From contig NZ_DAMCPG010000011.1 in assembly GCF_032106685.1 (NCBI RefSeq), positions 52,478 to 116,477 on the forward strand: DNA of 64,000 bases, written 5' to 3'. Under the pieces are notes generated by a model that was given only the letters and a program-made list of their open reading frames with translations, had not been told where the DNA came from and ran no database searches. The translations under genes and the position numbers were made by a program. Shown here one piece after another: positions 3,301-14,976 of this stretch (its first letter is position 1; each line of letters opens with the position of its first letter). Source of the stretch: Massilia sp. (GTDB lineage Bacteria; Pseudomonadota; Gammaproteobacteria; Burkholderiales; Burkholderiaceae_D).

Positions 3301-5023
3301 CGATGCCGGCGTTCTGCAGGGCCGGCAGGATGCGCGACAGCGACGGCACGTTCTCGCCCGAGTACAGGCGGATCGAGGCGTCGCGCGCGGCGTTGCCGTC
3401 ACCGCTGCCCGGCTCGATGCGCACGGCGACGCGCTCGTGCTGGCCGATGTTCAGCATGGCCTGCAGGTCGCGGAAGGCGACTTCCGGCGCGGTCGCGGTC
3501 ACGAACGAGACCGGCAGGTTGGCGCCGAGCTTGCGCAGGGCGCTGCGCTGGGCGTGCTCTTCGACGCCGTTGGTCATGGCGGCGAAGCGGTCGTGCCAGC
3601 CGTCCAGTACGGCCAGCAGCGGCTGCTGGATGTCGGTTTCGAGGTCGAGCGGATTGCGGGCGGCGTGGGCGATCAGGTAGACGCGGGCCAGCGGACCGTC
3701 GGCGACCAGGGTCTGCACGCGCACGTCGTGCGCGCCCGAGCTGTCCTTCAGGGCCTGGGCCAGCGAGGCGGCCATCGCTGCGCTGTAGCGCTCGCGCGGC
3801 AGGTAGACCAGCGCGTTCAGGTGGCGGCCGTAGACGTCGCGGCGGGCGAAGACTTTCGGGCGCGGCTGCTTGTACAGCGACACGACCGAGCTGCACACCT
3901 GCGCCAGCCATTCCGGATCGGCTTCCAGCGCTTCGGTGCGCGGCAGCGATTCGAGGATTTCCAGGAACTTCTCGGCGCGGAAGCCTTCCTGGCGCACGCC
4001 GGCCAGGCTCAGCACCTTGGCGACGCGGCCGCGCGCGAACGGCAGGCGCGCCAGCGGGGTCGAGGTGGCGGCGCGGGTGAACAGGCCGACGAAGCAGTGC
4101 TCGCCGAGGATGTTGCCTTGCGCATCGGTGTTGCGCACGCCGATGAAGTCGAGCGGCTGGTCGCGGTGCAGGGTGCCCTCGACGTCGGCTTTCACGATCG
4201 ACAGGGTCTCGGCGCGGGCCGACAGGGTTTTCAGTTCGCCCGGGATGTTGGCCAGGCAGGTGCCGTAGACCGGGTGCGCGGTGTCCTTCAGCACGCCGAT
4301 GCGGCTCGGGATGTCGCGCGCCAGTTCGTCCTGGCCCGGCTGCACCACGTAATAGGCGTAGCCGAAGGGCTCGAAGCCTTCGTTCTTGGCCCATTCGAGG
4401 AAGGCGGCCACTTCCTGGCCGGCCGGGGTGCCGGCGGCGGCTGCTGCCGCGGCCACTTCGGTCATGCGGTCGCCCATGGCGACGGCATCGCGGTGCACGA
4501 CGGCGGCGTCGCTGGCGACCATGCGGATGCGCGCGGTCAGCTTGTCGAGTTCCTCGAAGGCCAGTTCGTCGTTCAACAGCACCAGCACGTAGGATTCCAG
4601 CGGCGCGCCGGCGGTGCCGACGTTGACCACCTGGCCCGATGCGTCGCGCTCGACCGGCAGCACGGCGTTCATCACGCCGGCGGCCAGGACGCGTTCCTTG
4701 CGCAGGGCCATGACGAACGAGTCCACCAGGTAGGGCATGTCGTCGTTCAGGATCAGCAGGGCGGTCGCGATGCCGCCGCGGGTGTCGGTGTAGCGCATCT
4801 GCGCGATCTGGCAACCCTGCCCGGCGCGCTTGGCGGCCTGGGTGAAGCCGTCCCACAGGACGGGGGCCAGGGCTTCCGGCGTGGTGCCGGCCAGGTCCTC
4901 TTCGTCGAGCGACCCGAGCCAGGCGCTGATCAGCGCGGTTACCGGTGCGGTCGCGCCCGCGGCCGGCTGGTTCGTGACCAGCGAGAGGGTCTGGGTGCGC
5001 AAATCTTGCGTCATGTCGTTCAT
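314..5023 (-). CDS. gdhB: large NAD-specific glutamate dehydrogenase (about 180 kDa class)
   Basis: A 1569-aa ORF. Its length and sequence (e.g. GGLRWSDRMEDYRTEVLGLVKAQMVKNAVIVPAGSKGGF, VVAADKGTATFSDIAN, GYDHKKMGITAKGA) match the large bacterial NAD-GDH family. A GGAGAAAG Shine-Dalgarno lies before the ATG. Confidence 0.9.
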   Translation of the reverse strand: MNDMTQDLRTQTLSLVTNQPAAGATAPVTALISAWLGSLDEEDLAGTTPEALAPVLWDGFTQAAKRAGQGCQIAQMRYTDTRGGIATALLILNDDMPYLVDSFVMALRKERVLAAGVMNAVLPVERDASGQVVNVGTAGAPLESYVLVLLNDELAFEELDKLTARIRMVASDAAVVHRDAVAMGDRMTEVAAAAAAAGTPAGQEVAAFLEWAKNEGFEPFGYAYYVVQPGQDELARDIPSRIGVLKDTAHPVYGTCLANIPGELKTLSARAETLSIVKADVEGTLHRDQPLDFIGVRNTDAQGNILGEHCFVGLFTRAATSTPLARLPFARGRVAKVLSLAGVRQEGFRAEKFLEILESLPRTEALEADPEWLAQVCSSVVSLYKQPRPKVFARRDVYGRHLNALVYLPRERYSAAMAASLAQALKDSSGAHDVRVQTLVADGPLARVYLIAHAARNPLDLETDIQQPLLAVLDGWHDRFAAMTNGVEEHAQRSALRKLGANLPVSFVTATAPEVAFRDLQAMLNIGQHERVAVRIEPGSGDGNAARDASIRLYSGENVPSLSRILPALQNAGIAVDREQTWAITTADGVRHHVTALAVDDESGDKLVKPGIAQVAEELFAALFNDEAEDGRMNGLTVEGGLSMREVQLVRGYISYWRQLGSKFSVRYMAETLRTQPALVKEFVTGFVQRFDPALGESEHAAGNAKLAALKAGLSSVNHADTEEIMAALVDLALATVRTNYFQNSGEKMIFKVDTSNLALAPEPRPYREIYVFSRRFEGVHLRGGPVARGGLRWSDRMEDYRTEVLGLVKAQMVKNAVIVPAGSKGGFVCKQMPKDAPRDVMAAEGEACYRMFISSLLEVTDNRVQGAIVPPERTVRHDQDDPYLVVAADKGTATFSDIANSIAVQRGFWLGDAFASGGSNGYDHKKMGITAKGAFEAVKRHFYELGHDMTTTPITMVGVGDMSGDVFGNGVLLSRQLKLVAAFDHRHIFLDPTPDVEVSFKERQRMFALPRSSWEDYDKSLISQGGGVFPRSARSIDLTPQVREVLGIEETSLAPEELMHRILLAPVDLFYNGGIGTYIKASHETHAQVKDRANDRIRVNGGEMRCKVVGEGGNLGATQAGRIEFALNGGRIFTDAIDNSAGVDCSDHEVNIKIWLDTEVSAGKLPEADRNRILFEMTGDVEKLVLRDNTQQTRLLTREAQAQGNASIVDAYAALIANLEAEGAVSRELEQLPSDAELQRRKALGQGLTAPELAVVIANVKNRFKRTLAALPLVDEPWAATVLRPYFPAQLVATRDPLDHPLANAILATVLANEAVNRCGPLMLRDLAAEHRVDETEVVKAWGRGWSALQLAPVFDALDADALNVPREVSIAVDARTRALLRAVMEGVLSLPQGADGMTELSSLFADGDQLRQLMPSKSEADGYAGLSKNFVGAWKAVEAIESLATFLFAAVSVQRPAGMTLAQFLQVGMALRERAGIDTLERGLKLPATSKSQEQLRNYAMQALRRTQQRLLLKVIERAGSGDALAAVDTVTAEMGLTGYTQALELEQAMLDVWALSEGSNPERLAA

Positions 5024-5250
5024 TCTGCTTTCTCCAAAGCTTTAGTGTTGTCGCCGTTGCGCGCTACGGCTTGTGGCTCCGCGCGCCCCGGCGTTTGGTG
5101 GACAGGGTTGTCCCGTCCAGGTCCTCGGCTTCCTTGTCCCGGAAGCGTGTAACTCGTTATCGTTGCGACGGCGATGCGTCGTGCGCCGCCGTCGGTCCTT
5201 TGCTGCTTGCTGCCTGCGGCGCTGCGCGCCGCTGTATCTCTTCTCTACCG

Positions 5251-5447
5251 CCGTAGCGCGTGGGTTCGAGAACCCACCCTACGGTGCTGTACCTCTTCTC
5301 TGCCGCCGTACCGCGTGGACTCGGGAGCCTGCGCGGCCCGGTCCACCCTACAACAGCAGCGCACCGTAGGGTGGACACCTGTGTCCACGCGGTCTCACCG
5401 GTTGATCATCCAACATCACAACCGTAGGGTGGGTTCTTGAACCCACC
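5251..5447. repeat. REP hairpin cluster, 4 units in mixed orientation (5251-5284, 5306-5351, 5364-5392, 5422-5447)
   Basis: The units have the form CCGCGTGG[RNNC loop GNNY]CCACCCTACGG or its reverse complement. The cluster lies between the astB stop and the gdhB start. Confidence 0.85.
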
Positions 5448-5472
5448 GTTCCACCGGCCGATCATCCTGAAA

Positions 5473-6816
5473 TCAACCGAAGTCGTACAACCCCGGCAAA
5501 CCGAGAATCCGCTCCAGCGCCTCCAGCGCCGCATGGCACTCGATCGCCAGCTGCGGGTCCATCAAATCCTTCGGCTCGACCCGGTCGCGGTAATGCTTCT
5601 CGACCCACGCGACCAGCTGCGCATACAGCGTCTCGGTCATGATCACGCCGCCGTGCATGGCACCCGCCTGCTCGTCGGTCAGCGCCACGCGCAGGCGCAG
5701 GCAGGCCGGGCCGCCGCCGTTGCGCATGCTCTGGCGCAGGTCGAACTCGATCAGTTCGTCGATCGGACCGCCGCCCGCCACCAGGCCGGACAGGTAGCGC
5801 GCCACCGCCTCGTTCTCGCGGCACTCGTGCGGCACGACGAGCGCCATCTTGCCGTCCGGCTTGGACAGCAGCTGGCTGTTGAACAGGTAGCTGGCCACGG
5901 CGTCGGTCACCGGGACCTGGCCGCCATCGACCCGCACCGGCACGAACTCGAAGCCGACGCCGGCGCTTGCCCTGCGCAGCGCTTCGATGGTCGCCGCTTC
6001 GTCGGCAAAGGCCTGCTCGTGGTAGAACAGCACGTTGCCGTTGCCGACCGCGATCACGTCGTTGTGGAACACGCCCTGATCGATCACGTCCGGATTCTGC
6101 GACGCGAACACGGTGCGCACCGGATCGAGACCGTGCAGGCGCGCGACCGCCTGCGAAGCTTCCAAGGTCTGGCGCGCCGGGTATTTTTTAGGGGCCGGGG
6201 CCGACGGATCGAACTCGACGCGGCCGTAGACGAAGAACTCGACACCCGGCGCGCCATGGTCGGCGGCAAAGCGGGTGTGGTTCGCGGCGCCTTCGTCGCC
6301 AAAGGCCGGGGTCGCGGGCAGCGTGTCGTGCACCACGAAATGGTCGTGGTCGGCGAAGATCGCGCGCAGCGTGCGCGTGGCCTGCACGTGCTCTTCCGAG
6401 CGGTGCAGCTTGTTGTTCAGGTTGGCGGCGGTGAAGTGCACGCGGCCGTCGCGGGTGTCGGCCGATGGGCTGACGGTCGCGGCGTTGGCGGTCCACATCG
6501 GCGCGGCCGACCAGGCGCAGGACAGGATCACCGGCGCCTCGCGCCAGGCCTGCGCCAGCACGTCGGCATCCGTCCCCGAGAAGCCCAGGCTGCGCAGCAG
6601 GCGGAAGTTCGGACGCGCCTGCGGCGGCATCACGGCCTGGGCGAAGCCGCGCGCGGCCAGCGCGCGCATCTTGGCCAGGCCCTGCAGGGCGGCCTGGCGC
6701 GGGTTCGAGGCGCTGCGCACGTTGCTGAACGAGGCCACGTTGCCGAACGAGAGGCCGGCATAGTTGTGCGACGGGCCGACCAGGCCGTCGAAGTTGTATT
6801 CGCGAGCGTTACGCAT
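5473..6816 (-). CDS. astB: N-succinylarginine dihydrolase
   Basis: 447 aa. The N-terminus [29 protein letters not shown]... closely parallels the enterobacterial AstB N-terminus. Confidence 0.9.
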
Positions 6817-6819
6817 GAA

Positions 6820-8301
6820 TTAAAAGCTCAGTCCCGGCGACAGCTTGGCCGGCATTTCAAGTTCGGAAGTCTCGATCGAGGCCACCGGGTAAGCGCAGTA
6901 GTCGGCCGCATAATACGCGCTCGGACGGTGGTTGCCCGACTTGCCGACGCCGCCGAACGGCGCCGAGCTGGCCGCGCCCGTGGTCGGGCGGTTCCAGTTG
7001 ACGATGCCGGCGCGTGCGCGCACCGCGAAGCGCTTCCACAGTTCTTCCGACGGCGACAAGAGCGCCGCGGCCAGGCCGAATTCGGTGGCGTTGGCAACCT
7101 TCAGCGCGCTGTCGAAATCTTTTACGCGCACGACCTGCAGCAGCGGGCCGAACCACTCTTCGTCCGGGATGCCCTGGGCGTTGGTGACGTCGACGATGCC
7201 GGCGGTGACGAAACCGGCATTCGGGTCGAGCTGGCGCATCTGCAGCAATACCTTGCCGCCCTTCTGTTCCATCTCGGCCTGGGCCTGCACCAGGCGCGCG
7301 GCGACCGCGGCGGATACGACCGGCCCCATGAACGGCTGAGGGTCGGCGTTCGACGGGCCAACCTGCAATTTCGACGCGACCTCGACCAGGCGATCGATGA
7401 AGGCTTGCCCTTCCGGCGTATCCTGCACCACCAGGCGGCGCGCGCAGGTGCAGCGCTGGCCGGCCGAGATAAACGCCGACATCACGGCGTGGTGGACGGC
7501 GGCGTCGACATCCTTAGGGTTGTCACTGAGATCCCACACCACGAGCGGATTGTTGCCGCCCATTTCCAGCGCCAGCATCTTGCCCGGCTGGCCCCCGAAC
7601 TGTTTATGCAGGGCGGCGCCGGTCTGGCTGCTGCCGGTGAACAGCACGCCGTCGATCAGGGGATTCGCGCCCAGCGCGATGCCGGTGTTGCGGCCGCCGT
7701 TCACCAGGTTCAGCACGCCCTTCGGCAGGCCGGCCTTTTCCCACAGCTGCACGGTCTTCACGGCGGTGCGCGGCGCGTACTCGCTCGGCTTGAACACGAC
7801 CGTGTTCCCGGCGATCAGGGCCGGCACGATGTGGCCATTCGGCAGGTGGCCCGGGAAGTTATAGGGGCCGTAGACGGCGAACACGCCGTGCGGGCGGTGG
7901 CGCAGCACGGCGTTGCCGTCGGCAACCTTGGCGTTGCTTTCGCCGGTGCGCGCGCCATAGGACTGGACCGAGATGTCGATCTTGTTGGCCATGGTCGCCA
8001 CTTCCGTGCGCGCTTCCCACAAAGGTTTACCGACTTCCTCGGCGATAGTCGCCGCCAGCTCCTCGGCGTGTTCCTTCAGCAGGTCGCGAAAGCGCGTGCA
8101 GACGGCGATGCGCTCGTCGAGCGGGCGCAAGGCCCAGTCCTCGAAGGTGTCGCGGGCGGCCTGGGCGGCGCGCGCCACGTCCTCTTCGGTCGATTCGTTG
8201 CTGGTCCAGGTCTGGCGGCCGGTGGACGGATCGATCGTGACCAGTTCCGCGCCGCTGCCGGCGAGCCATTCGCCGTTGATGTAGTTCGACAGGTTAGCCA
8301 T
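6820..8301 (-). CDS. astD: succinylglutamate-semialdehyde dehydrogenase
   Basis: A 493-aa aldehyde dehydrogenase family protein located between aruG and astB. It overlaps the aruG stop by 8 nt. Confidence 0.85.
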   Translation of the reverse strand: MANLSNYINGEWLAGSGAELVTIDPSTGRQTWTSNESTEEDVARAAQAARDTFEDWALRPLDERIAVCTRFRDLLKEHAEELAATIAEEVGKPLWEARTEVATMANKIDISVQSYGARTGESNAKVADGNAVLRHRPHGVFAVYGPYNFPGHLPNGHIVPALIAGNTVVFKPSEYAPRTAVKTVQLWEKAGLPKGVLNLVNGGRNTGIALGANPLIDGVLFTGSSQTGAALHKQFGGQPGKMLALEMGGNNPLVVWDLSDNPKDVDAAVHHAVMSAFISAGQRCTCARRLVVQDTPEGQAFIDRLVEVASKLQVGPSNADPQPFMGPVVSAAVAARLVQAQAEMEQKGGKVLLQMRQLDPNAGFVTAGIVDVTNAQGIPDEEWFGPLLQVVRVKDFDSALKVANATEFGLAAALLSPSEELWKRFAVRARAGIVNWNRPTTGAASSAPFGGVGKSGNHRPSAYYAADYCAYPVASIETSELEMPAKLSPGLSF

Positions 8302-9335: not shown

Positions 9336-10358
9336 TCAGATTCTGACGCAGATGACGGAGTCGCCCGGCGCCACGCCCAGCGCTTCCTGCGCCGCTGGCG
9401 GCAAGCAGATGGCGTCGGAGGTATCGCAGGGTGGGCAGGCCACGGTGACGGCGCGGAAGCGCTCGGCGCTGGTCGCCACCGCGTAGGTGACGGTGGCGCC
9501 GCTGTCGGTCGAAGCGGTTTCGACGCGGCGGTGCTGCGAGCCGCAGAAGGAGCGCAGCGACAGTTTATGGGCCGCCAGGATCGGGCCGCCGTCGAAGATG
9601 TCGACGTATTCGTCGGCCTCGAAGCCCTCTTCGGTCAGCAGCTTGAACGCCAGCTGGCCGCTCGGGTGGATCTGGCCCATCGCCGCCTGGGCGTCGCCCG
9701 GCAGCAGCGGCACGTAGACAGGATAGTGCGGCATCAGCTCGACGATCAGGGTCCGGTTGCGCGCGCCGCCGATGACGCGTTCGGCTTCCAGGAAATCCAT
9801 CTTGAAGAACTTGCGGCCCAGCGCATTCCAGAACGGCGACTGGCCGTCGCTGTCGGTGACGCCGGCCAGCGGCACGAAGAAGCGGTCGCCGAAGCGGTGC
9901 GGCGCCAGCGCCGCGAACAGCAGCCGCGCGCGCGACAGCAGCGCGGCTTCGATACCGGCGTGCTCGCGGTCGCGCAGATTGAAGCCGGCCAGCTGCGAGC
10001 AAGCGGTGAGTTCGGAACACAGCGTCAGCGCATGCACGCTGTGGGAGATGTTCAGGTCGCGCGAGACCTGCTGGATGACGTCGTTGCGGAAAGCGAAATA
10101 AGTGCCGTTCGAGCCGGCCGAGGCGTGGACCGCGGCGGTGCCGACGACTTCGCGGCTGTTCGTATCCTCGAGCACGAACAGGTAGGACTCTTCGCTGGGA
10201 ATATCGACTTGCGCCGCGAACGAAGCAATGGATCGCTCGACGAAGGCGGTGATCGCCTCGCGCGTGCGCGGCAGCGTGTGCACTCCCGGCGTCGCCACCG
10301 CGGCCAGGCTCTCCAGCGCGCCGATATCCGACAGTTCTACCGGACGGACAACATACAT
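9336..10358 (-). CDS. aruF: arginine/ornithine N-succinyltransferase subunit (first paralog)
   Basis: AstA-family protein. I prefer the ATG at 10358 (MYVVRPVELSDIGALESL), which is preceded by GGGAG with a 5-nt spacer. The track start at 10370 is a TTG. Confidence 0.75.
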   Translation of the reverse strand: MYVVRPVELSDIGALESLAAVATPGVHTLPRTREAITAFVERSIASFAAQVDIPSEESYLFVLEDTNSREVVGTAAVHASAGSNGTYFAFRNDVIQQVSRDLNISHSVHALTLCSELTACSQLAGFNLRDREHAGIEAALLSRARLLFAALAPHRFGDRFFVPLAGVTDSDGQSPFWNALGRKFFKMDFLEAERVIGGARNRTLIVELMPHYPVYVPLLPGDAQAAMGQIHPSGQLAFKLLTEEGFEADEYVDIFDGGPILAAHKLSLRSFCGSQHRRVETASTDSGATVTYAVATSAERFRAVTVACPPCDTSDAICLPPAAQEALGVAPGDSVICVRI

Positions 10359-10455: not shown

Positions 10456-11700
10456 TCAGGCGGCGGCCAGGAATTCCTCGACCGCGGCGCGCAGGATGCG
10501 ATCGGCTTCCGCGATCTGCTCGTCCGACACGATCAGCGCGGGCGCCATGCGCACCACGTCCATGCCGGCCACCAGCAGCATCAGGCCCATCTTCTCGGCG
10601 ACCTTGGTCAGGTCCTTGGCGCGGCCCTTGTAGCCTTCCGCCATCGGCAGGCCGATCAGGAGGCCCATGCCGCGCGCCTTGCCGAACAGCTGCGGGTAGT
10701 CGGCGGAGAGCTTGTCGAGATTTGCGAAGATCTTGGCGCTGGCTTCCTTCACGCGCGCCAGGAAGGCCGGCTGGTTGATGGTCTCGATCACGTTCAGGGC
10801 GACGGTCGCGGCCAGCGGGTTGCCGCCGTAGGTGGTGCCGTGCGAGCCGACGTTGAAGTGCTGGGCGATCTCGTTCGTGGTCAGCATCGCGCCGATCGGG
10901 TAGCCGTTGCCCAGTGCCTTGGCGCTGGTCAGGATGTCCGGGGTGACGCCGCTGTCCATGTAGGCGTACAGCGAACCGGTACGGCCCACGCCCGACTGCA
11001 CTTCGTCGAAGATCAAGAGGGCGCCGGTCTTGTCGCACAGCTCGCGCAGGGCCTGCAGGTATTCCTTGTTACCCGGGATGACGCCGCCCTCGCCCTGGAT
11101 CGGCTCGACGATCACGGCCGCGACGTCGTCGAGGATGGCGGCGCGCGCCGCTTCGATGTCGTTATAGGCGATGTGGTTGATTTCCTGCGGCAGCGGCTCG
11201 AAGCCTTCGGTGTACTTCGGCTGGCCGCCCACCGAGACGGTGAACAGGGTACGGCCGTGGAAGGACGACAGGCAGGAGATGATGCGCGACTTGTGCGGGC
11301 CGAACTTGGTGTGCGCGTACTTGCGCGCCAGTTTCAGGGCCGCTTCGTTCGCTTCCGCGCCCGAGTTGCAGAAGAAGGCGCGGTCGGCAAAGGTGGCTTC
11401 GGTCAGGGCCAGCGCCAGGCGCAGGACCGGCTCGTTGGTGTAGCCGTTACCGAGGTGCCACAGGGTGTTCAGCTGCTTGGTCAGCGCGTCGACCAGCACC
11501 GGGTTGGCGTGACCCAGGCTCGAGACCGCGATGCCTGAGGTGAAGTCGAGGTAGTGCTTGCCTTCCTGGTCCCACACGTCCAGGCCCGAGGCGCGCACCG
11601 GCACCATGCCGGCCGGGGCGTAGGTCGGGACGAGGACTTCGTCGAAGGTCTGCCGAGTGACAGGCCGCGTTGTGACACCCGAATCAAGCTTTGCGTTCAT
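10456..11700 (-). CDS. aruC: succinylornithine/acetylornithine aminotransferase (class III PLP)
   Basis: A class-III aminotransferase sequence and the first gene of the ast string. I prefer the start MNAKLDSGV at 11700 over the track start at 11814. Confidence 0.85.
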   Translation of the reverse strand: MNAKLDSGVTTRPVTRQTFDEVLVPTYAPAGMVPVRASGLDVWDQEGKHYLDFTSGIAVSSLGHANPVLVDALTKQLNTLWHLGNGYTNEPVLRLALALTEATFADRAFFCNSGAEANEAALKLARKYAHTKFGPHKSRIISCLSSFHGRTLFTVSVGGQPKYTEGFEPLPQEINHIAYNDIEAARAAILDDVAAVIVEPIQGEGGVIPGNKEYLQALRELCDKTGALLIFDEVQSGVGRTGSLYAYMDSGVTPDILTSAKALGNGYPIGAMLTTNEIAQHFNVGSHGTTYGGNPLAATVALNVIETINQPAFLARVKEASAKIFANLDKLSADYPQLFGKARGMGLLIGLPMAEGYKGRAKDLTKVAEKMGLMLLVAGMDVVRMAPALIVSDEQIAEADRILRAAVEEFLAAA

Positions 11701-11760
11701 GACTTTTTCCTCATCCATGTAAGTGACAGGCGCGCCTGGAGACGGGCGCCGAACCTGGTC

Positions 11761-11803
11761 ATTATAGGAAGACGGGGTGGCAAGTTCTTGCAGAAGTGCG
11801 ACG
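11761..11803 (-). promoter_or_regulatory. candidate aruC promoter: TATAAT -10 (11766..11761) with an upstream ArgR-like half site CGTCGC-N8-AA (11803..11788)
   Basis: The minus strand reads CCCCGTCGCACTTCTGCAAGAACTTGCCACCCCGTCTTCCTATAATG, about 55 nt upstream of the ATG. The half site resembles the Pseudomonas ArgR motif TGTCGC-N8-AA-N5. The -35 is poor, which fits an activator-dependent promoter. Confidence 0.35.
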
Positions 11804-12173
11804 GGGATTTTCATTTTTGGTCGGGAAGCTCAGCATCCGCCATACCGCGCCAAGACTCTACGGCGCCCTCTTCCTGAGACGATTACACATCTACCGGCAT
11901 ACTAGGCCCCGAGCAACCATAGTGAATTGACAACAAAACATCTGATGCAGTCGCTTCAGACACCGAAAATTCTCATACGGGACCAGATTTCGAAACGTTA
12001 TATGCATCTTACATTATTTTACCCCATCGTAAAAATGACTCGTTGTGGCGATCCATAATAACGGTACAGACAATAATGATTCTTCACTGGCAAACTCTCG
12101 ACGCATCAGAAGAAACCTGCTACATTTAAACCTCCCACATCACAAGAGCTCCGGAAAAATTTCAAGTCAAGCA

Positions 12174-12188
12174 AATGAATTATTCATT
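12174..12188. promoter_or_regulatory. perfect 7+1+7 palindrome AATGAAT-T-ATTCATT about 60 nt upstream of the islet gene
   Basis: Read directly from the sequence. It is a possible operator; its function is unknown. Confidence 0.3.
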
Positions 12189-12248
12189 ACTTAGAGTTGA
12201 CGTGAGATCTTAAAAATAATTGCTTTATTACCTATCGCCAATCGATAT

Positions 12249-13994
12249 ATGAGCAACGATCTTATTAGCATCAACATCCCTACTGAAACAGTCCGTCCAT
12301 CAATATCCTTCGAAGAAATAACATTTTCAGACGGGCAAGCCCTACGTTTTGAAGACGATGAGATTATCGTTTTTGTGGGCCCGAATAATGCAGGCAAAAG
12401 TGCCGCACTGCGGGATCTTCAAAATTGGATTGCGACACCTCGAAAACAGACGGTAGTGATTGATGCCAAAACTAGAAAAACCGGCACGCAAAACGACCTA
12501 AAATGTTATCTCGAACGCTACGCACAGAAAACAGGAGACCCAATAAACTTTAGCTACGGAGGAATTGGCTTTAGCATTCACCACTCAAACATAAGTTGGT
12601 TTGACCAACCTCATGATCGCCATCCTGTAGCGCCTTTTTTCACAACGCGAGTAGCCACAGAAAGTAGAATTAATGGCTCCGACCCTGCTGGCGCCATTGC
12701 ACTTTATCAAACCCCACCATCACATCCAATTCACCTGTTAATGATGGATAATACGCTTGCCTCATCAATTAGTGATTTATTTCGGCGAGCATTTGGCAAG
12801 GATTTAATTGTGTTTAGGGCAGGCGGCTCACAATTTCCTCTATATGTCGGAAAGAAACCAAATCTGGAAACAGGAGAAGATGAACTAGCAAAGCCATATG
12901 TCGACAAACTCTTACGCGATGCGGTTCCGCTTCACTCGCAAGGTGATGGCATGCGAAGCTTTGTAACAGTTTTACTCAACATTTTGGTAGCAGATAATCA
13001 TTCAATTCAATTTCTCGATGAGCCCGAAGCTTTTCTACACCCTCCACAGGCTAGGCTACTAGGAGAATACATAGCAAAGAATAGGCGGGCGCGTTCACAA
13101 CTATTTATTTCCACCCATAGCACCGACATTCTAGATGGATTACTTGCCGGAAGTAGCGATAAAGTTCGAATCGTTCGAATCCAACGCGCTGGAGATGTTA
13201 ATCGCGTAAAAGAATTAAGCAAAGAGCGCACAGCAGCAATATCGAATGATACCCTCACCCAATACTCTGGGGTTTTCAAAGGAATATTTTATCGACATGT
13301 TGTCATCACTGAGGCAGATAGCGACTGCCTCTTCTATAGCTCAATACTTAATTTACCTAGCATAAGTGGAGAAGTGCGCCCAGACGTTTTATTCATCCAT
13401 GCATCAGGAAAACATCGGATGAGTAGACTGGTTGAAACATTAAGATCTCTTGACGTCCCACTTTCCGTAATTGCTGACATTGACATATTAAGTGAGGAGA
13501 ACGCGTTTCGCCAACTATATGAAAATTTGGGCGGTAACTGGGAAGACATTAAGACTGCATGGAGAACAATAAAAACTAGTGTAGAGTCTGTAAGCCCACC
13601 GATTAATGCTAGCCAAATTAAGCAGATGATTTTAAGCGAACTAGAAAGTGTCTCTGGAACCGAAAAATTCCCTAGAGATATCGAGCGAACTATCAAGAAC
13701 ATTTTTCGCACCGTATCGCCTTGGGATAATGTTAAGCATGCAGGACGCAGCGCATTAAGAGGTTCCGCCACAGTCTCGCAGTTTAATTTCCTCTGGGACA
13801 AATGCAAAAATTTAGGTCTATGGATCGTTCCTGTTGGAGAGTTAGAAGGATTCTGTCGCAGTATTGATGCTCGACATGGTCCTAGTTTCGTTGAAAAAGT
13901 ATTAGAAGAAAGAAATCTGGAAACGGATCCTGAGCTTGCTGAAGTTAGGGAATTTGTTACGCAGATCTGGAAGTTCGCGAAGGATCCAAACTAG
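12249..13994 (+). CDS. ABC-type (AAA_15/21-like) ATPase fused to a Toprim-like nuclease domain; OLD-family / DUF4435-style putative defence nuclease
   Basis: 581 aa. Motifs: Walker A GPNNAGKS (aa 44-51); signature-like SQGDGMRS (aa 230-237); Walker B/D-loop IQFLDEPEAFLHP (aa 253-265); H-loop STHS (aa 288-291). The C-terminal half has VVITEADSDCLFY (Glu355), VIADIDIL (DxD at 410-412) and VPVGELEGF. Together these give the E...DxD Toprim pattern seen in OLD, AriB and AbiLii proteins. The gene sits in AT-rich DNA, unlike its neighbours. Confidence 0.7.
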   Translation: MSNDLISINIPTETVRPSISFEEITFSDGQALRFEDDEIIVFVGPNNAGKSAALRDLQNWIATPRKQTVVIDAKTRKTGTQNDLKCYLERYAQKTGDPINFSYGGIGFSIHHSNISWFDQPHDRHPVAPFFTTRVATESRINGSDPAGAIALYQTPPSHPIHLLMMDNTLASSISDLFRRAFGKDLIVFRAGGSQFPLYVGKKPNLETGEDELAKPYVDKLLRDAVPLHSQGDGMRSFVTVLLNILVADNHSIQFLDEPEAFLHPPQARLLGEYIAKNRRARSQLFISTHSTDILDGLLAGSSDKVRIVRIQRAGDVNRVKELSKERTAAISNDTLTQYSGVFKGIFYRHVVITEADSDCLFYSSILNLPSISGEVRPDVLFIHASGKHRMSRLVETLRSLDVPLSVIADIDILSEENAFRQLYENLGGNWEDIKTAWRTIKTSVESVSPPINASQIKQMILSELESVSGTEKFPRDIERTIKNIFRTVSPWDNVKHAGRSALRGSATVSQFNFLWDKCKNLGLWIVPVGELEGFCRSIDARHGPSFVEKVLEERNLETDPELAEVREFVTQIWKFAKDPN

Positions 13995-14176
13995 TTAATT
14001 TCAACGCAGCCCTTGAATATCAGTACTTTAATCGATGAGGCGAAGTCGGCTCGTCTCCGACGATAGCATATGCGCGAATAATGCGTTTTAGCAGCAATAT
14101 TGACGCTTGTATAAAACGCCCGTTTGCGACATCCGTTGCCGGCGGACCCATTGGGTCCACCAGCGATGGTGCGTAA

Positions 14177-14689
14177 TTACACCTTGCGACGGCGGCTGGC
14201 GGCAAAGCCGGCCAGGCCCAGGCCGAGCAGCGCCAGCGAAGCCGGCTCAGGCACGTCGGTCGTCGCCACGTTGCCGTTGATGGTCAAGGTGTAAGCCATC
14301 GGCGTGTGGGCGTGACCGGTGTAGATCGAATTGGTATTGAGGTTCCAATAGCTGCCGTGGGTCGTGATCCAGGCGGTGTAGCTGCCGACGCCCAGGTTCA
14401 GGGACAGGAAGCTGTCCAGGCCGCCGCCTGCGTCGTCATCCTGGGCGATGAAGGTCGCATTGCTGAGCACGTTGGTGCCGGAAAACAGGCCGAGCCATGC
14501 ATCGGTGTTGCCTTCGAGGAAAAGCGTCGTCGCGCCTTCTTCCGTTACGTCGAAGTTGAACAGGGTGTAGGCGCCGACAGGGGCATCCGGCAGGGTACCG
14601 CTGGTCGTGAGCACGCCGGCGTGGGCCGACAACGAGCACATGGCCGCGAGGGCGAATGCGGACATCGTACGGATTATTTTCTTGTGCAT
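14177..14689 (-). CDS. PEP-CTERM sorting-domain secreted protein
   Basis: The C-terminus is VPEPASLALLGLGLAGFAASRRRKV (PEP motif, then a TM helix, then a basic tail). The N-terminal signal peptide is MHKKIIRTMSAFALAAMCSLSAHAG. The start at 14689 is preferred over 14713. Confidence 0.8.
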   Translation of the reverse strand: MHKKIIRTMSAFALAAMCSLSAHAGVLTTSGTLPDAPVGAYTLFNFDVTEEGATTLFLEGNTDAWLGLFSGTNVLSNATFIAQDDDAGGGLDSFLSLNLGVGSYTAWITTHGSYWNLNTNSIYTGHAHTPMAYTLTINGNVATTDVPEPASLALLGLGLAGFAASRRRKV

Positions 14690-14976
14690 GCCAATTGCTT
14701 TGCCATCTTTCATTTTCTTATCCTTGTTGAGTGGTGAATGATTGATGTCGCGGTCTTGTTTGCTTTCAGGACAACAGCGCGACCTCAGCGAAGGGAGCGA
14801 GCCAGCCGTCTGTGCAAACGCGTCGGCTCTGATCGTCCGCTTCAGCGATGAAAAAGCATTAACTATGCCAAGATTGCAAGATTTGCTTTAAGCAATTGAA
14901 TTGGTTGATTTTTATTTCGAATAATCAACTAGTGGCAACGTCAGCGCGGGAGGCACTGTAAATATATCTGACAGTC

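Follow-up and report, generated by a model that had tools for sequence, protein, structure and literature searches.

A 64,000-nucleotide stretch of DNA from Massilia sp. (NCBI RefSeq assembly GCF_032106685.1, contig NZ_DAMCPG010000011.1, positions 52,478 to 116,477 of the forward strand), referred to here as the window, was analysed with a focus on a short AT-rich islet upstream of aruC that carries one gene of 581 codons. The product of this gene is probably a single-gene OLD-family ATPase-nuclease with an anti-phage role, acquired as cargo in a variable hotspot next to aruC, a reading to which we assign a probability of about 0.72. It is suggested by profile and structure matches of both halves of the protein to OLD proteins, by the conservation of its predicted active-site residues throughout its clade, and by the occurrence of known defence systems at the same site in related species.

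The islet and its borders

The islet is clearly set apart from its surroundings by composition, with a G+C content of 43.2% (11824-14134) versus 66.8% for the remaining window. G+C lies at 0.64-0.70 in the flanks and drops to 0.38-0.45 across about 11800-14150, and this is the only 1-kb stretch below 52% G+C in the whole 64 kb. An earlier note on this DNA, made from the sequence alone, had described an open reading frame (ORF) of 581 aa at 12249-13994 on the plus strand and had counted G+C by hand in two lines of the islet; the ORF is present as described and the counts were exact (25 of 60 at 12301-12360 and 24 of 60 at 13441-13500). G+C at the third codon position is 0.36 in this gene versus 0.91 in aruC.

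The limits of the islet were placed by alignment to relatives. The alignment blocks of one related genome (L004) correspond to 16500-14135 and 11819-10000 of the window and are separated by 89 bp, where the window has 2.3 kb. On the left, the alignments of all relatives examined break off at 11823/11824, and a 123-bp block upstream of aruC is near-invariant across eight aligned relatives, with all cargoes stopping exactly there. On the right, the homology of L004 extends through the stop codon of a PEP-CTERM protein gene and an inverted repeat at 14133-14169; this hairpin is kept in L004 and belongs with the 3' end of that gene. The L004 junctions together with the left break in the relatives therefore put the islet at about 11824-14132. 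The islet reported by the earlier note is thus real, with its limits moved from 11880-14176; similarly, its leader and tail are non-coding as had been stated, with sizes of about 425 and 140 nt in place of roughly 370 and 180 nt. The features of the locus are as follows.

About 11824-14132 (2.3 kb): horizontally acquired AT-rich islet, flanked by the PEP-CTERM 3' hairpin and by the conserved block upstream of aruC
12249-13994, plus strand: 581-aa single-gene OLD-family ATPase-Toprim gene, from ORF, profiles and structure model
12297-13253, plus strand: ABC/SMC-type ATPase region (aa 17-335)
13284-13991, plus strand: OLD-type Toprim region with helical insert and C-terminal helices (aa 346-581)
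11824-12248, plus strand: non-coding leader, about 425 nt, 42% G+C
13995-14132, plus strand: non-coding tail of the islet, about 140 nt
11701-11823, minus strand: conserved aruC upstream block, the fixed left border of the hotspot, outside the islet
14133-14169: inverted repeat (hairpin) at the 3' end of the PEP-CTERM gene, right border, outside the islet, single-copy in the window
14177-14713, minus strand: PEP-CTERM protein gene (Pfam PEP_exosort_dom recorded on an identical protein)

No tRNA gene was found anywhere in the window, and searches of the islet borders gave no meaningful direct repeat, terminal inverted repeat or repeat of the repetitive extragenic palindromic (REP) type, in agreement with the report of borders free of tRNA, integrase and obvious direct repeats. 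Tandem repeats of note were also absent. Within the islet, neither a second ORF of substance nor a recombinase gene is present; the leader contains only ORFs of at most 49 aa, and a search of leader and islet against Rfam yielded no match at a meaningful threshold and no retron non-coding RNA. The tail folds more stably than its shuffles (z = -2.9), mostly due to the adjoining conserved hairpin. The islet is a single-gene cargo from horizontal transfer: it forms a clean insertion relative to L004, and the gene is missing at this site in all 80 species-representative loci described below, which bears out the horizontal acquisition that had been proposed.

Domain architecture and protein family

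The protein has the OLD architecture, namely an N-terminal ABC-type ATPase followed by a Toprim domain at the C-terminus, in which a glutamate and a DxD motif are conserved. In the ATPase, Walker A (G44PNNxGKS51, with K50), a signature-like motif (Q231GDGMRSF), Walker B (F255LDEPE260) and the H-loop (H290) can be recognised, and the Toprim region contains E355-x-D357-x-D359, G387-K388-H389-R390, D410-x-D412, G530-E531-x-E533 and H543-G-P. All of these residues are invariant across an alignment of 41 members and present in the window protein. C360, H384, H389-R390, C536 and H543-G-P are invariant residues specific to the clade, and a helical segment of about 100 aa (about aa 417-520) separates the DxD strand from the GELEG strand. 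The motifs quoted in the earlier note all lie at the residues given there (GPNNAGKS 44, SQGDGMRS 230, FLDEPE 255, STHS 288, ITEADSD 353, IADIDIL 408, GELEG 530), and its numbering of K50, E355, D410 and D412, proposed as mutants, is correct.

Among Pfam families, AAA_21 (7.6e-15) and AAA_15 (8.7e-13) matched above their cut-offs, and OLD-like_TOPRIM matched aa 346-412 with an E-value of 3.2e-4. OLD-like_TOPRIM also matched every one of the 41 aligned homologues (best 1.3e-6), versus none for DUF4435 at E<=0.01; in the window protein, no DUF4435 match was obtained at E<=1 with HMMER, whose filters hide very weak matches. The best PADLOC model was Old (1.1e-18), followed by AriA (1.5e-17), NsnB, AriAB (1.1e-15) and GajA, and PHROG profiles matched as well. 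A search of the PDB with the single sequence returned generic ABC transporters only, and a family profile was needed to reach the best PDB match, TsOLD (6P74, a Class 1 OLD protein; E 4.7e-5), with an alignment spanning Walker B to DxD. Comparing the family profile with that of P2 Old gave a probability of 94% and an E-value of 1.2e-7 over 259 columns, including the E..D, GK, DxD and G[DE]xE elements, and in the alignments to both TsOLD and P2 Old, E355 and D410xD412 fall on the motifs of these proteins. P2 Old was not found by tblastn, and comparison of the family profile with Escherichia coli YbjD gave no relation past the P-loop.

More than 3,200 homologues were retrieved, the top 120 of which are full length with 60-83% identity; the sources of the top matches include Massilia, Nitrosomonas, Nitratireductor, Bradyrhizobium, Ancylobacter and Dyella, and the source records name the proteins 'ATP-dependent nuclease' or 'AAA family ATPase'. 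The clade is conserved at 60% identity or more across alpha-, beta- and gamma-proteobacteria. In an exhaustive search of representatives clustered at 50% identity, there were 3,864 clusters at E<=1e-3, of which 1,242 reached E<=1e-30; the best are full length with 32-47% identity. Relatives are rare in plasmid collections.

Predicted structure

The AlphaFold model of the full-length protein had a mean predicted local distance difference test score (pLDDT) of 86.3 and a predicted template modelling score (pTM) of 0.80. Its top PDB matches in Foldseek were the Retron-Eco8 OLD protein (E 3.7e-10), TsOLD and GajA, with overall E-values of 4e-10 to 1e-7, and the OLD proteins were followed by the heads of SMC, Rad50 and PtuA. 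A separate model of the C-terminal half (aa 338-581, pLDDT 86.9) was compared with known folds, as had been suggested for OLD, GajA and AriB; its top five matches were the C-terminal regions of Xanthomonas (Xcc) and Burkholderia (Bp) OLD proteins (E 7e-4 to 3e-3), followed by TsOLD, an outcome consistent with a Toprim fold. The structural alignments to OLD proteins have about 10-16% identity. No chain of PARIS was present among the top 50 fold matches of either model, and the viral structure library gave nothing beyond giant-virus proteins named 'ATP-dependent endonuclease'. Pfam, family profile and structure searches thus agree with the lone ABC-ATPase/Toprim fusion of OLD type that the earlier note had recognised.

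Genomic context and placement among OLD classes

OLD proteins are divided into classes by genomic context: Class 1 consists of a single gene, Class 2 (Gabija) occurs with a UvrD-like helicase, and Class 4 is PARIS, with AriA and AriB split or fused (PMC10568477; PMC12392090). Class 1 proteins have been linked to defence (PMC10568477; PMC12392090; PMC12445682). To describe the context of the present family, ORFs of 80 aa or more lying no further than 3 kb from a homologue were clustered at 88 loci, where the homologues have 39-100% identity. No neighbouring protein family occurred at more than four of the 88 loci, so that no recurrent partner gene was detected, and no conserved small ORF flanks the gene. 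The top neighbour cluster comprises aruC-type aminotransferases, from the window, from two metagenome contigs with the homologue at the same aruC-upstream site (L085 and L094) and from locus L113. The upstream genes at three other loci are mutually unrelated and absent from the window leader. In the window itself the neighbours are aruC and the PEP-CTERM gene, and the absence of an adjacent GajB-type helicase, reverse transcriptase or second gene holds. The gene falls in Class 1 of the context-based definition because it has no conserved partner gene.

As far as their defining features could be compared, the other arrangements do not fit. For Class 2 (Gabija GajA), no adjacent UvrD/PcrA/Rep-like helicase gene (gajB) was found in the window or at the 88 loci. 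For Class 3 (retron effectors), which is marked by a reverse transcriptase gene and a retron non-coding RNA alongside, the islet has no second ORF of substance or Rfam match of note, and the retron_eff_Eco8 model scored 27 bits versus a cut-off of 250. Class 4 (PARIS) is discouraged by the DUF4435 and fold searches given above for the window protein and its 41 homologues. The two-gene arrangement of AbiL (AbiLi/AbiLii) differs from the single fused ORF seen here, and the AbiLi models matched at about 1e-11, in the ATPase part.

Comparison with the characterised proteins defines what is shared and what is particular. With P2 Old and TsOLD, the conserved E..D, GK, DxD and G[DE]xE elements align, and among solved structures TsOLD is the closest by sequence and one of the closest by fold. 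However, these proteins are very remote from the family, with about 13-16% identity when structures are aligned; the first Toprim motif is E-A/S-D-x-D in the present family, whereas it is E-G-x-x-E/D in the Class 1 proteins P2 Old, TsOLD and Vc OLD, and unlike these the clade has its own invariant residues and the helical segment of about 100 aa. The two-domain architecture is common to GajA and to the proteins represented by the Burkholderia and Xanthomonas C-terminal regions (PDB 8SM3, 6NK8 and 6NJX), although the PADLOC GajA models reach only about 1e-10 on the window protein. The Retron-Eco8 OLD effector (Class 3), the top full-length fold match, has chains longer than the window protein by about 150-170 aa. 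PARIS AriA/AriB and AriAB likewise combine an ABC ATPase with a Toprim nuclease and give weak AriA/AriAB profile matches, but the Toprim of the window protein matches OLD-like_TOPRIM, not DUF4435. Judged from these sequences, the family is best described as an uncharacterised clade of Class 1-type OLD proteins, far from every characterised member. The suggestion that the gene might be an undescribed variant was therefore overstated, as it belongs to a divergent clade of already-defined Class 1 OLD nucleases.

A variable hotspot upstream of aruC

The distribution of the gene was examined by searching species-representative genomes with the AruC protein, which gave 80 loci, nearly all from Massilia or Telluria, with AruC 85-100% identical. 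The 581-aa gene was found at the aruC-upstream site in none of the 80. The comparison of relatives that had been proposed thus does not show the gene to be a conserved housekeeping gene at this locus. At 67 loci, the gap between a gene for an AraC-type regulator and aruC measures 148 bp to 8.5 kb. In most species, aruC follows the regulator gene after 150-450 bp; in the clade nearest to the window, the gap reaches up to 8.5 kb, is often AT-rich and has contents that vary by species. The AraC-aruC gap is a recurrent hotspot of variable cargo, bounded by core genes, in the Massilia/Telluria lineage. The cargo found in relatives includes the following.

L007 (Telluria sp. B2): Septu PtuA/PtuB (PADLOC PDC-M01A 9e-208, PDC-M01B 1e-94) and two unannotated AT-rich genes
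L010, 7272-9548, minus strand: lone gene for a 758-aa NACHT protein, 43% G+C (Pfam NACHT 4e-9)
L015, 6811-8616, plus strand: lone 601-aa ATPase-Toprim fusion (PADLOC ATPase-Toprim_I-B 4e-21, AriAB 3e-20)
L013 and L018: DUF488 protein (PADLOC PDC-M45C 3e-60)
L008: 873-aa protein and AT-rich unknowns in the AraC-aruC gap

The ATPase-Toprim protein of L015 is weakly related to the family profile of the window gene (hhalign E 8e-4), so that these two hotspot genes are not alleles of each other. The PEP-CTERM gene is a second, older variable cargo of the hotspot: among the 80 species loci it was found only in L004 (82% identity) and L012 (68%), and the sister contig L085 lacks it. When islet-free strains were sought through identical PEP-CTERM proteins, only the same locus was returned.

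Diverged alleles of the window gene occupy the aruC-upstream site in two metagenome contigs:

L085, 6160-7905: allele encoding an 83%-identical protein
L094, 826-2505: allele encoding an 83%-identical protein

Between L085 and the window, the flanks are 95-97% identical in nucleotides, versus 73.5% for the OLD-like gene, and the leaders of the two alleles have no nucleotide similarity. In the OLD-like gene, nonsynonymous divergence (dN) is 0.12 and synonymous divergence (dS) is saturated, whereas in the aruC, AraC and EamA genes dN is 0.003-0.006 and dS is 0.09-0.22. The saturation in the gene compared with the flanks indicates that the alleles diverged long before their hosts did, and the low dN relative to dS indicates that both are under purifying selection. 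This pattern points to a probable replacement of cargo at the aruC site, not to vertical descent, and the cargo may enter by recombination in the conserved flanks. The route of acquisition, which the earlier note had left unexplained, is partly accounted for by a recurrent hotspot bounded by core genes.

Core defence hotspots have been described as bounded by core genes and tied to no single family of mobile elements (PMC10250203). The aruC hotspot fits this description, with core flanks and varied cargo that includes known defence systems. It shares with cDHS1 and cDHS2 of Pseudomonas aeruginosa a fixed core flanking pair, low-G+C cargo, defence systems that differ per genome and the lack of one mobile-element family (PMC10250203). 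Unlike them, it is far smaller (0.15-8.5 kb), usually holds one system and is empty in most species, and it was seen across the species representatives of a genus and not in many isolates of one species.

Proposed function and alternative explanations

A mechanism can be drawn from characterised OLD proteins, and it is by analogy with these that we infer nuclease activity, anti-phage function, substrate and trigger. P2 Old cleaves the anticodon stems of tRNA in a manner dependent on ATP hydrolysis (PMC12445682), Vc OLD of Vibrio cholerae nicks DNA and blocks phage replication (PMC12392090), and TsOLD of Thermus scotoductus is a non-specific DNA nuclease (PMC10568477). In the window protein, the ATPase heads would bind and hydrolyse ATP and gate the nuclease, perhaps upon sensing a cue of infection. 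The Toprim acidic residues E355, D359, D410, D412 and E531/E533 would hold two metal ions and cut nucleic acid, and the cutting, either as DNA nicking or as tRNA cleavage, might stop phage replication or kill the infected cell. A role in defence is favoured indirectly by the cargo that relatives carry at this hotspot, namely Septu, a NACHT protein, a different ATPase-Toprim fusion and DUF488.

Several results weigh against this assignment. The OLD-like_TOPRIM score of the window protein (21.6 bits) lies just below the Pfam cut-off of 23.2; all PADLOC matches are partial, including that of Old, with fused AriAB worse by about three orders of magnitude; and no NCBIfam model reaches its cut-off, the best being the retron_eff_Eco8 model already mentioned. 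Template modelling scores (TM-scores) to solved OLD structures are low (0.35-0.45), which in these models would fit a distant relationship combined with the clade-specific helical segment. Phage relatives are rare, with two found in 2.9 million viral contigs and one full-length match in 50,697 phage records. The leader showed no consensus sigma-70 promoter site, and a scan of the tail gave no terminator-like site for the gene. In addition, two relatives within the OLD family have been assigned other properties: the archaeal OLD ATPase Cran1 acts in cell-cycle progression (PMC12796447), and the Toprim domain of E. coli YbjD is reported to be dispensable (PMC13261556).

Such members with non-defence or unclear roles raise the question of whether the gene is immune at all; it might instead be a selfish module for addiction or stabilisation, or an accessory ATPase-nuclease for DNA repair or chromosome maintenance that resides in variable regions. 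Many homologues do adjoin integrases, transposases or Fic/Doc toxin genes, and some sit between housekeeping genes, as in Massilia sp. PAMC28688 (L084). The islet, however, contains no recombinase or other mobile-element gene to be stabilised, and the absence of the gene from the site in all 80 species representatives is not what is expected of a housekeeping gene. Moreover, established defence systems occupy the same site in relatives, and the occurrence of deeply diverged alleles at a single site, within backgrounds that are nearly identical, fits the exchange of defence genes. We therefore consider a non-immune role unlikely.

It is also improbable that the gene is a fused PARIS (AriA-AriB, Class 4), which would be triggered by an anti-restriction protein of a phage and whose Toprim would cleave host tRNA. 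To the earlier note, the Toprim motif looked closer to DUF4435 than to canonical OLD, and the spacing E-x-x-x-D-x-x-F-Y may resemble DUF4435 motifs. The AriA and AriAB scores in PADLOC are near that of Old, and fused PARIS genes are reported to exist (PMC12392090). Nevertheless, the AriA matches are confined to the Walker B and H-loop part of the ATPase, which is generic, the alignment with the P2 Old profile spans the whole C-terminal region, and OLD-like_TOPRIM is found throughout the 41 homologues where DUF4435 is not; together with the absence of PARIS chains from the top folds, these results give no support to the proposed affinity to DUF4435. That the islet is foreign DNA left over in a decaying or silent state, with no present function, is hardly credible, since an AT-rich composition not adjusted towards that of the host, a start codon preceded by no obvious ribosome-binding site, and the want of promoter- and terminator-like sites stand against a full-length ORF with every family-invariant residue, a dN far below dS relative to the L085 allele, and an identical protein in two independent sequencing runs.

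Implications

For the single-gene OLD-family protein proposed here, a further step can be considered, although we hold it to be doubtful: the family may be a distinct, unclassified branch of single-gene OLD proteins with its own substrate or trigger and, separately, the aruC gap may be an integrase-free core defence hotspot whose alleles are swapped by recombination in the flanks. The candidate branch may be marked by the E-x-D-x-D motif, by its own invariant Cys, His and Arg residues and by a helical insert in the Toprim region that is about 100 aa long, with some 1,240 clusters (50% identity, E<=1e-30). If the integrase-free hotspot is real, several unannotated AT-rich genes found there could be new defence genes. 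Class 1 is the least understood class of OLD proteins, with few studied members that differ in substrate (tRNA for P2 Old, DNA for Vc OLD), and a large, well-conserved clade would be a reasonable further case for testing phage defence by lone OLD proteins and the target that they attack. The more useful by-product is the aruC hotspot, which could serve as a small discovery site for defence genes. Current understanding is left unchanged by these findings.

Other loci and further observations

Outside the aruC site, homologues of the window gene were found in diverse surroundings.

L084 (Massilia sp. PAMC28688): flanked by genes for a peptidase M3 and for tetrahydrofolate (THF) dehydrogenase/cyclohydrolase, the latter presumably folD
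L086 (Nitratireductor): amid small unknown genes
L087 (Bradyrhizobium): adjoining a resolvase, HEPN_AbiU2 and HsdR
L088 (Dyella): flanked by an RHS gene and a Tn7-like transposon
L090 (viral-collection contig): tyrosine integrase gene at 4874-5971 (Phage_integrase 7e-15), sharing 4 nt with the beginning of a homologue at 5968-7701 (52% identity)

The overlap with the integrase gene in L090 places that homologue at the edge of an integrative element. Ten neighbours of homologues, hand-picked so that the counts are illustrative and not a rate, were compared with Pfam and comprised four tyrosine integrases, two IS3-type transposases, one resolvase, two Fic/Doc proteins and one protein with no match.

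At the left flank of the islet, the longest ORF of aruC starts at 11814, yet the ATG at 11700, which has GAGGAA in front of it, is the conserved start; a TATAAT lies at 11762-11767 on the minus strand, inside the near-invariant 123 bp upstream of the aruC start. Near the right end of the islet, a GCAT-rich, partly palindromic stretch (14060-14090) was aligned by MAFFT to about 9835-9860 in the 89-bp empty site of L004, with weak similarity.

Within the hotspot of relatives, the 873-aa protein of L008 is one that we take to be VgrG-like, judged by eye from its sequence only. Neither Pfam nor PADLOC matches the two AT-rich genes (296 and 290 aa) that lie directly upstream of PtuA/PtuB in L007 (5309-7053); these genes may be additional defence genes or accessories of Septu. 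Other AT-rich ORFs in the gap that match neither database are those of L008 (8350-9531, minus strand, 393 aa), L059 (1945-2697, minus strand, 250 aa) and L005 (451-822, minus strand, 123 aa), and an AT-rich ORF of 132 aa in the gap of L006 (820-1218, minus strand) is near-identical to that of L005. Finally, the gap of four loci (L044, 9107-9826; L057, 8829-9578; L082, 9067-9789; L030, 9308-9850) contains genes that we presume, by motif only, to be of the REP-associated tyrosine transposase (RAYT)-like kind (motif PLHITQRGNNR) and of IS110 type, and these transposase-like genes may bear on recombination at the site.

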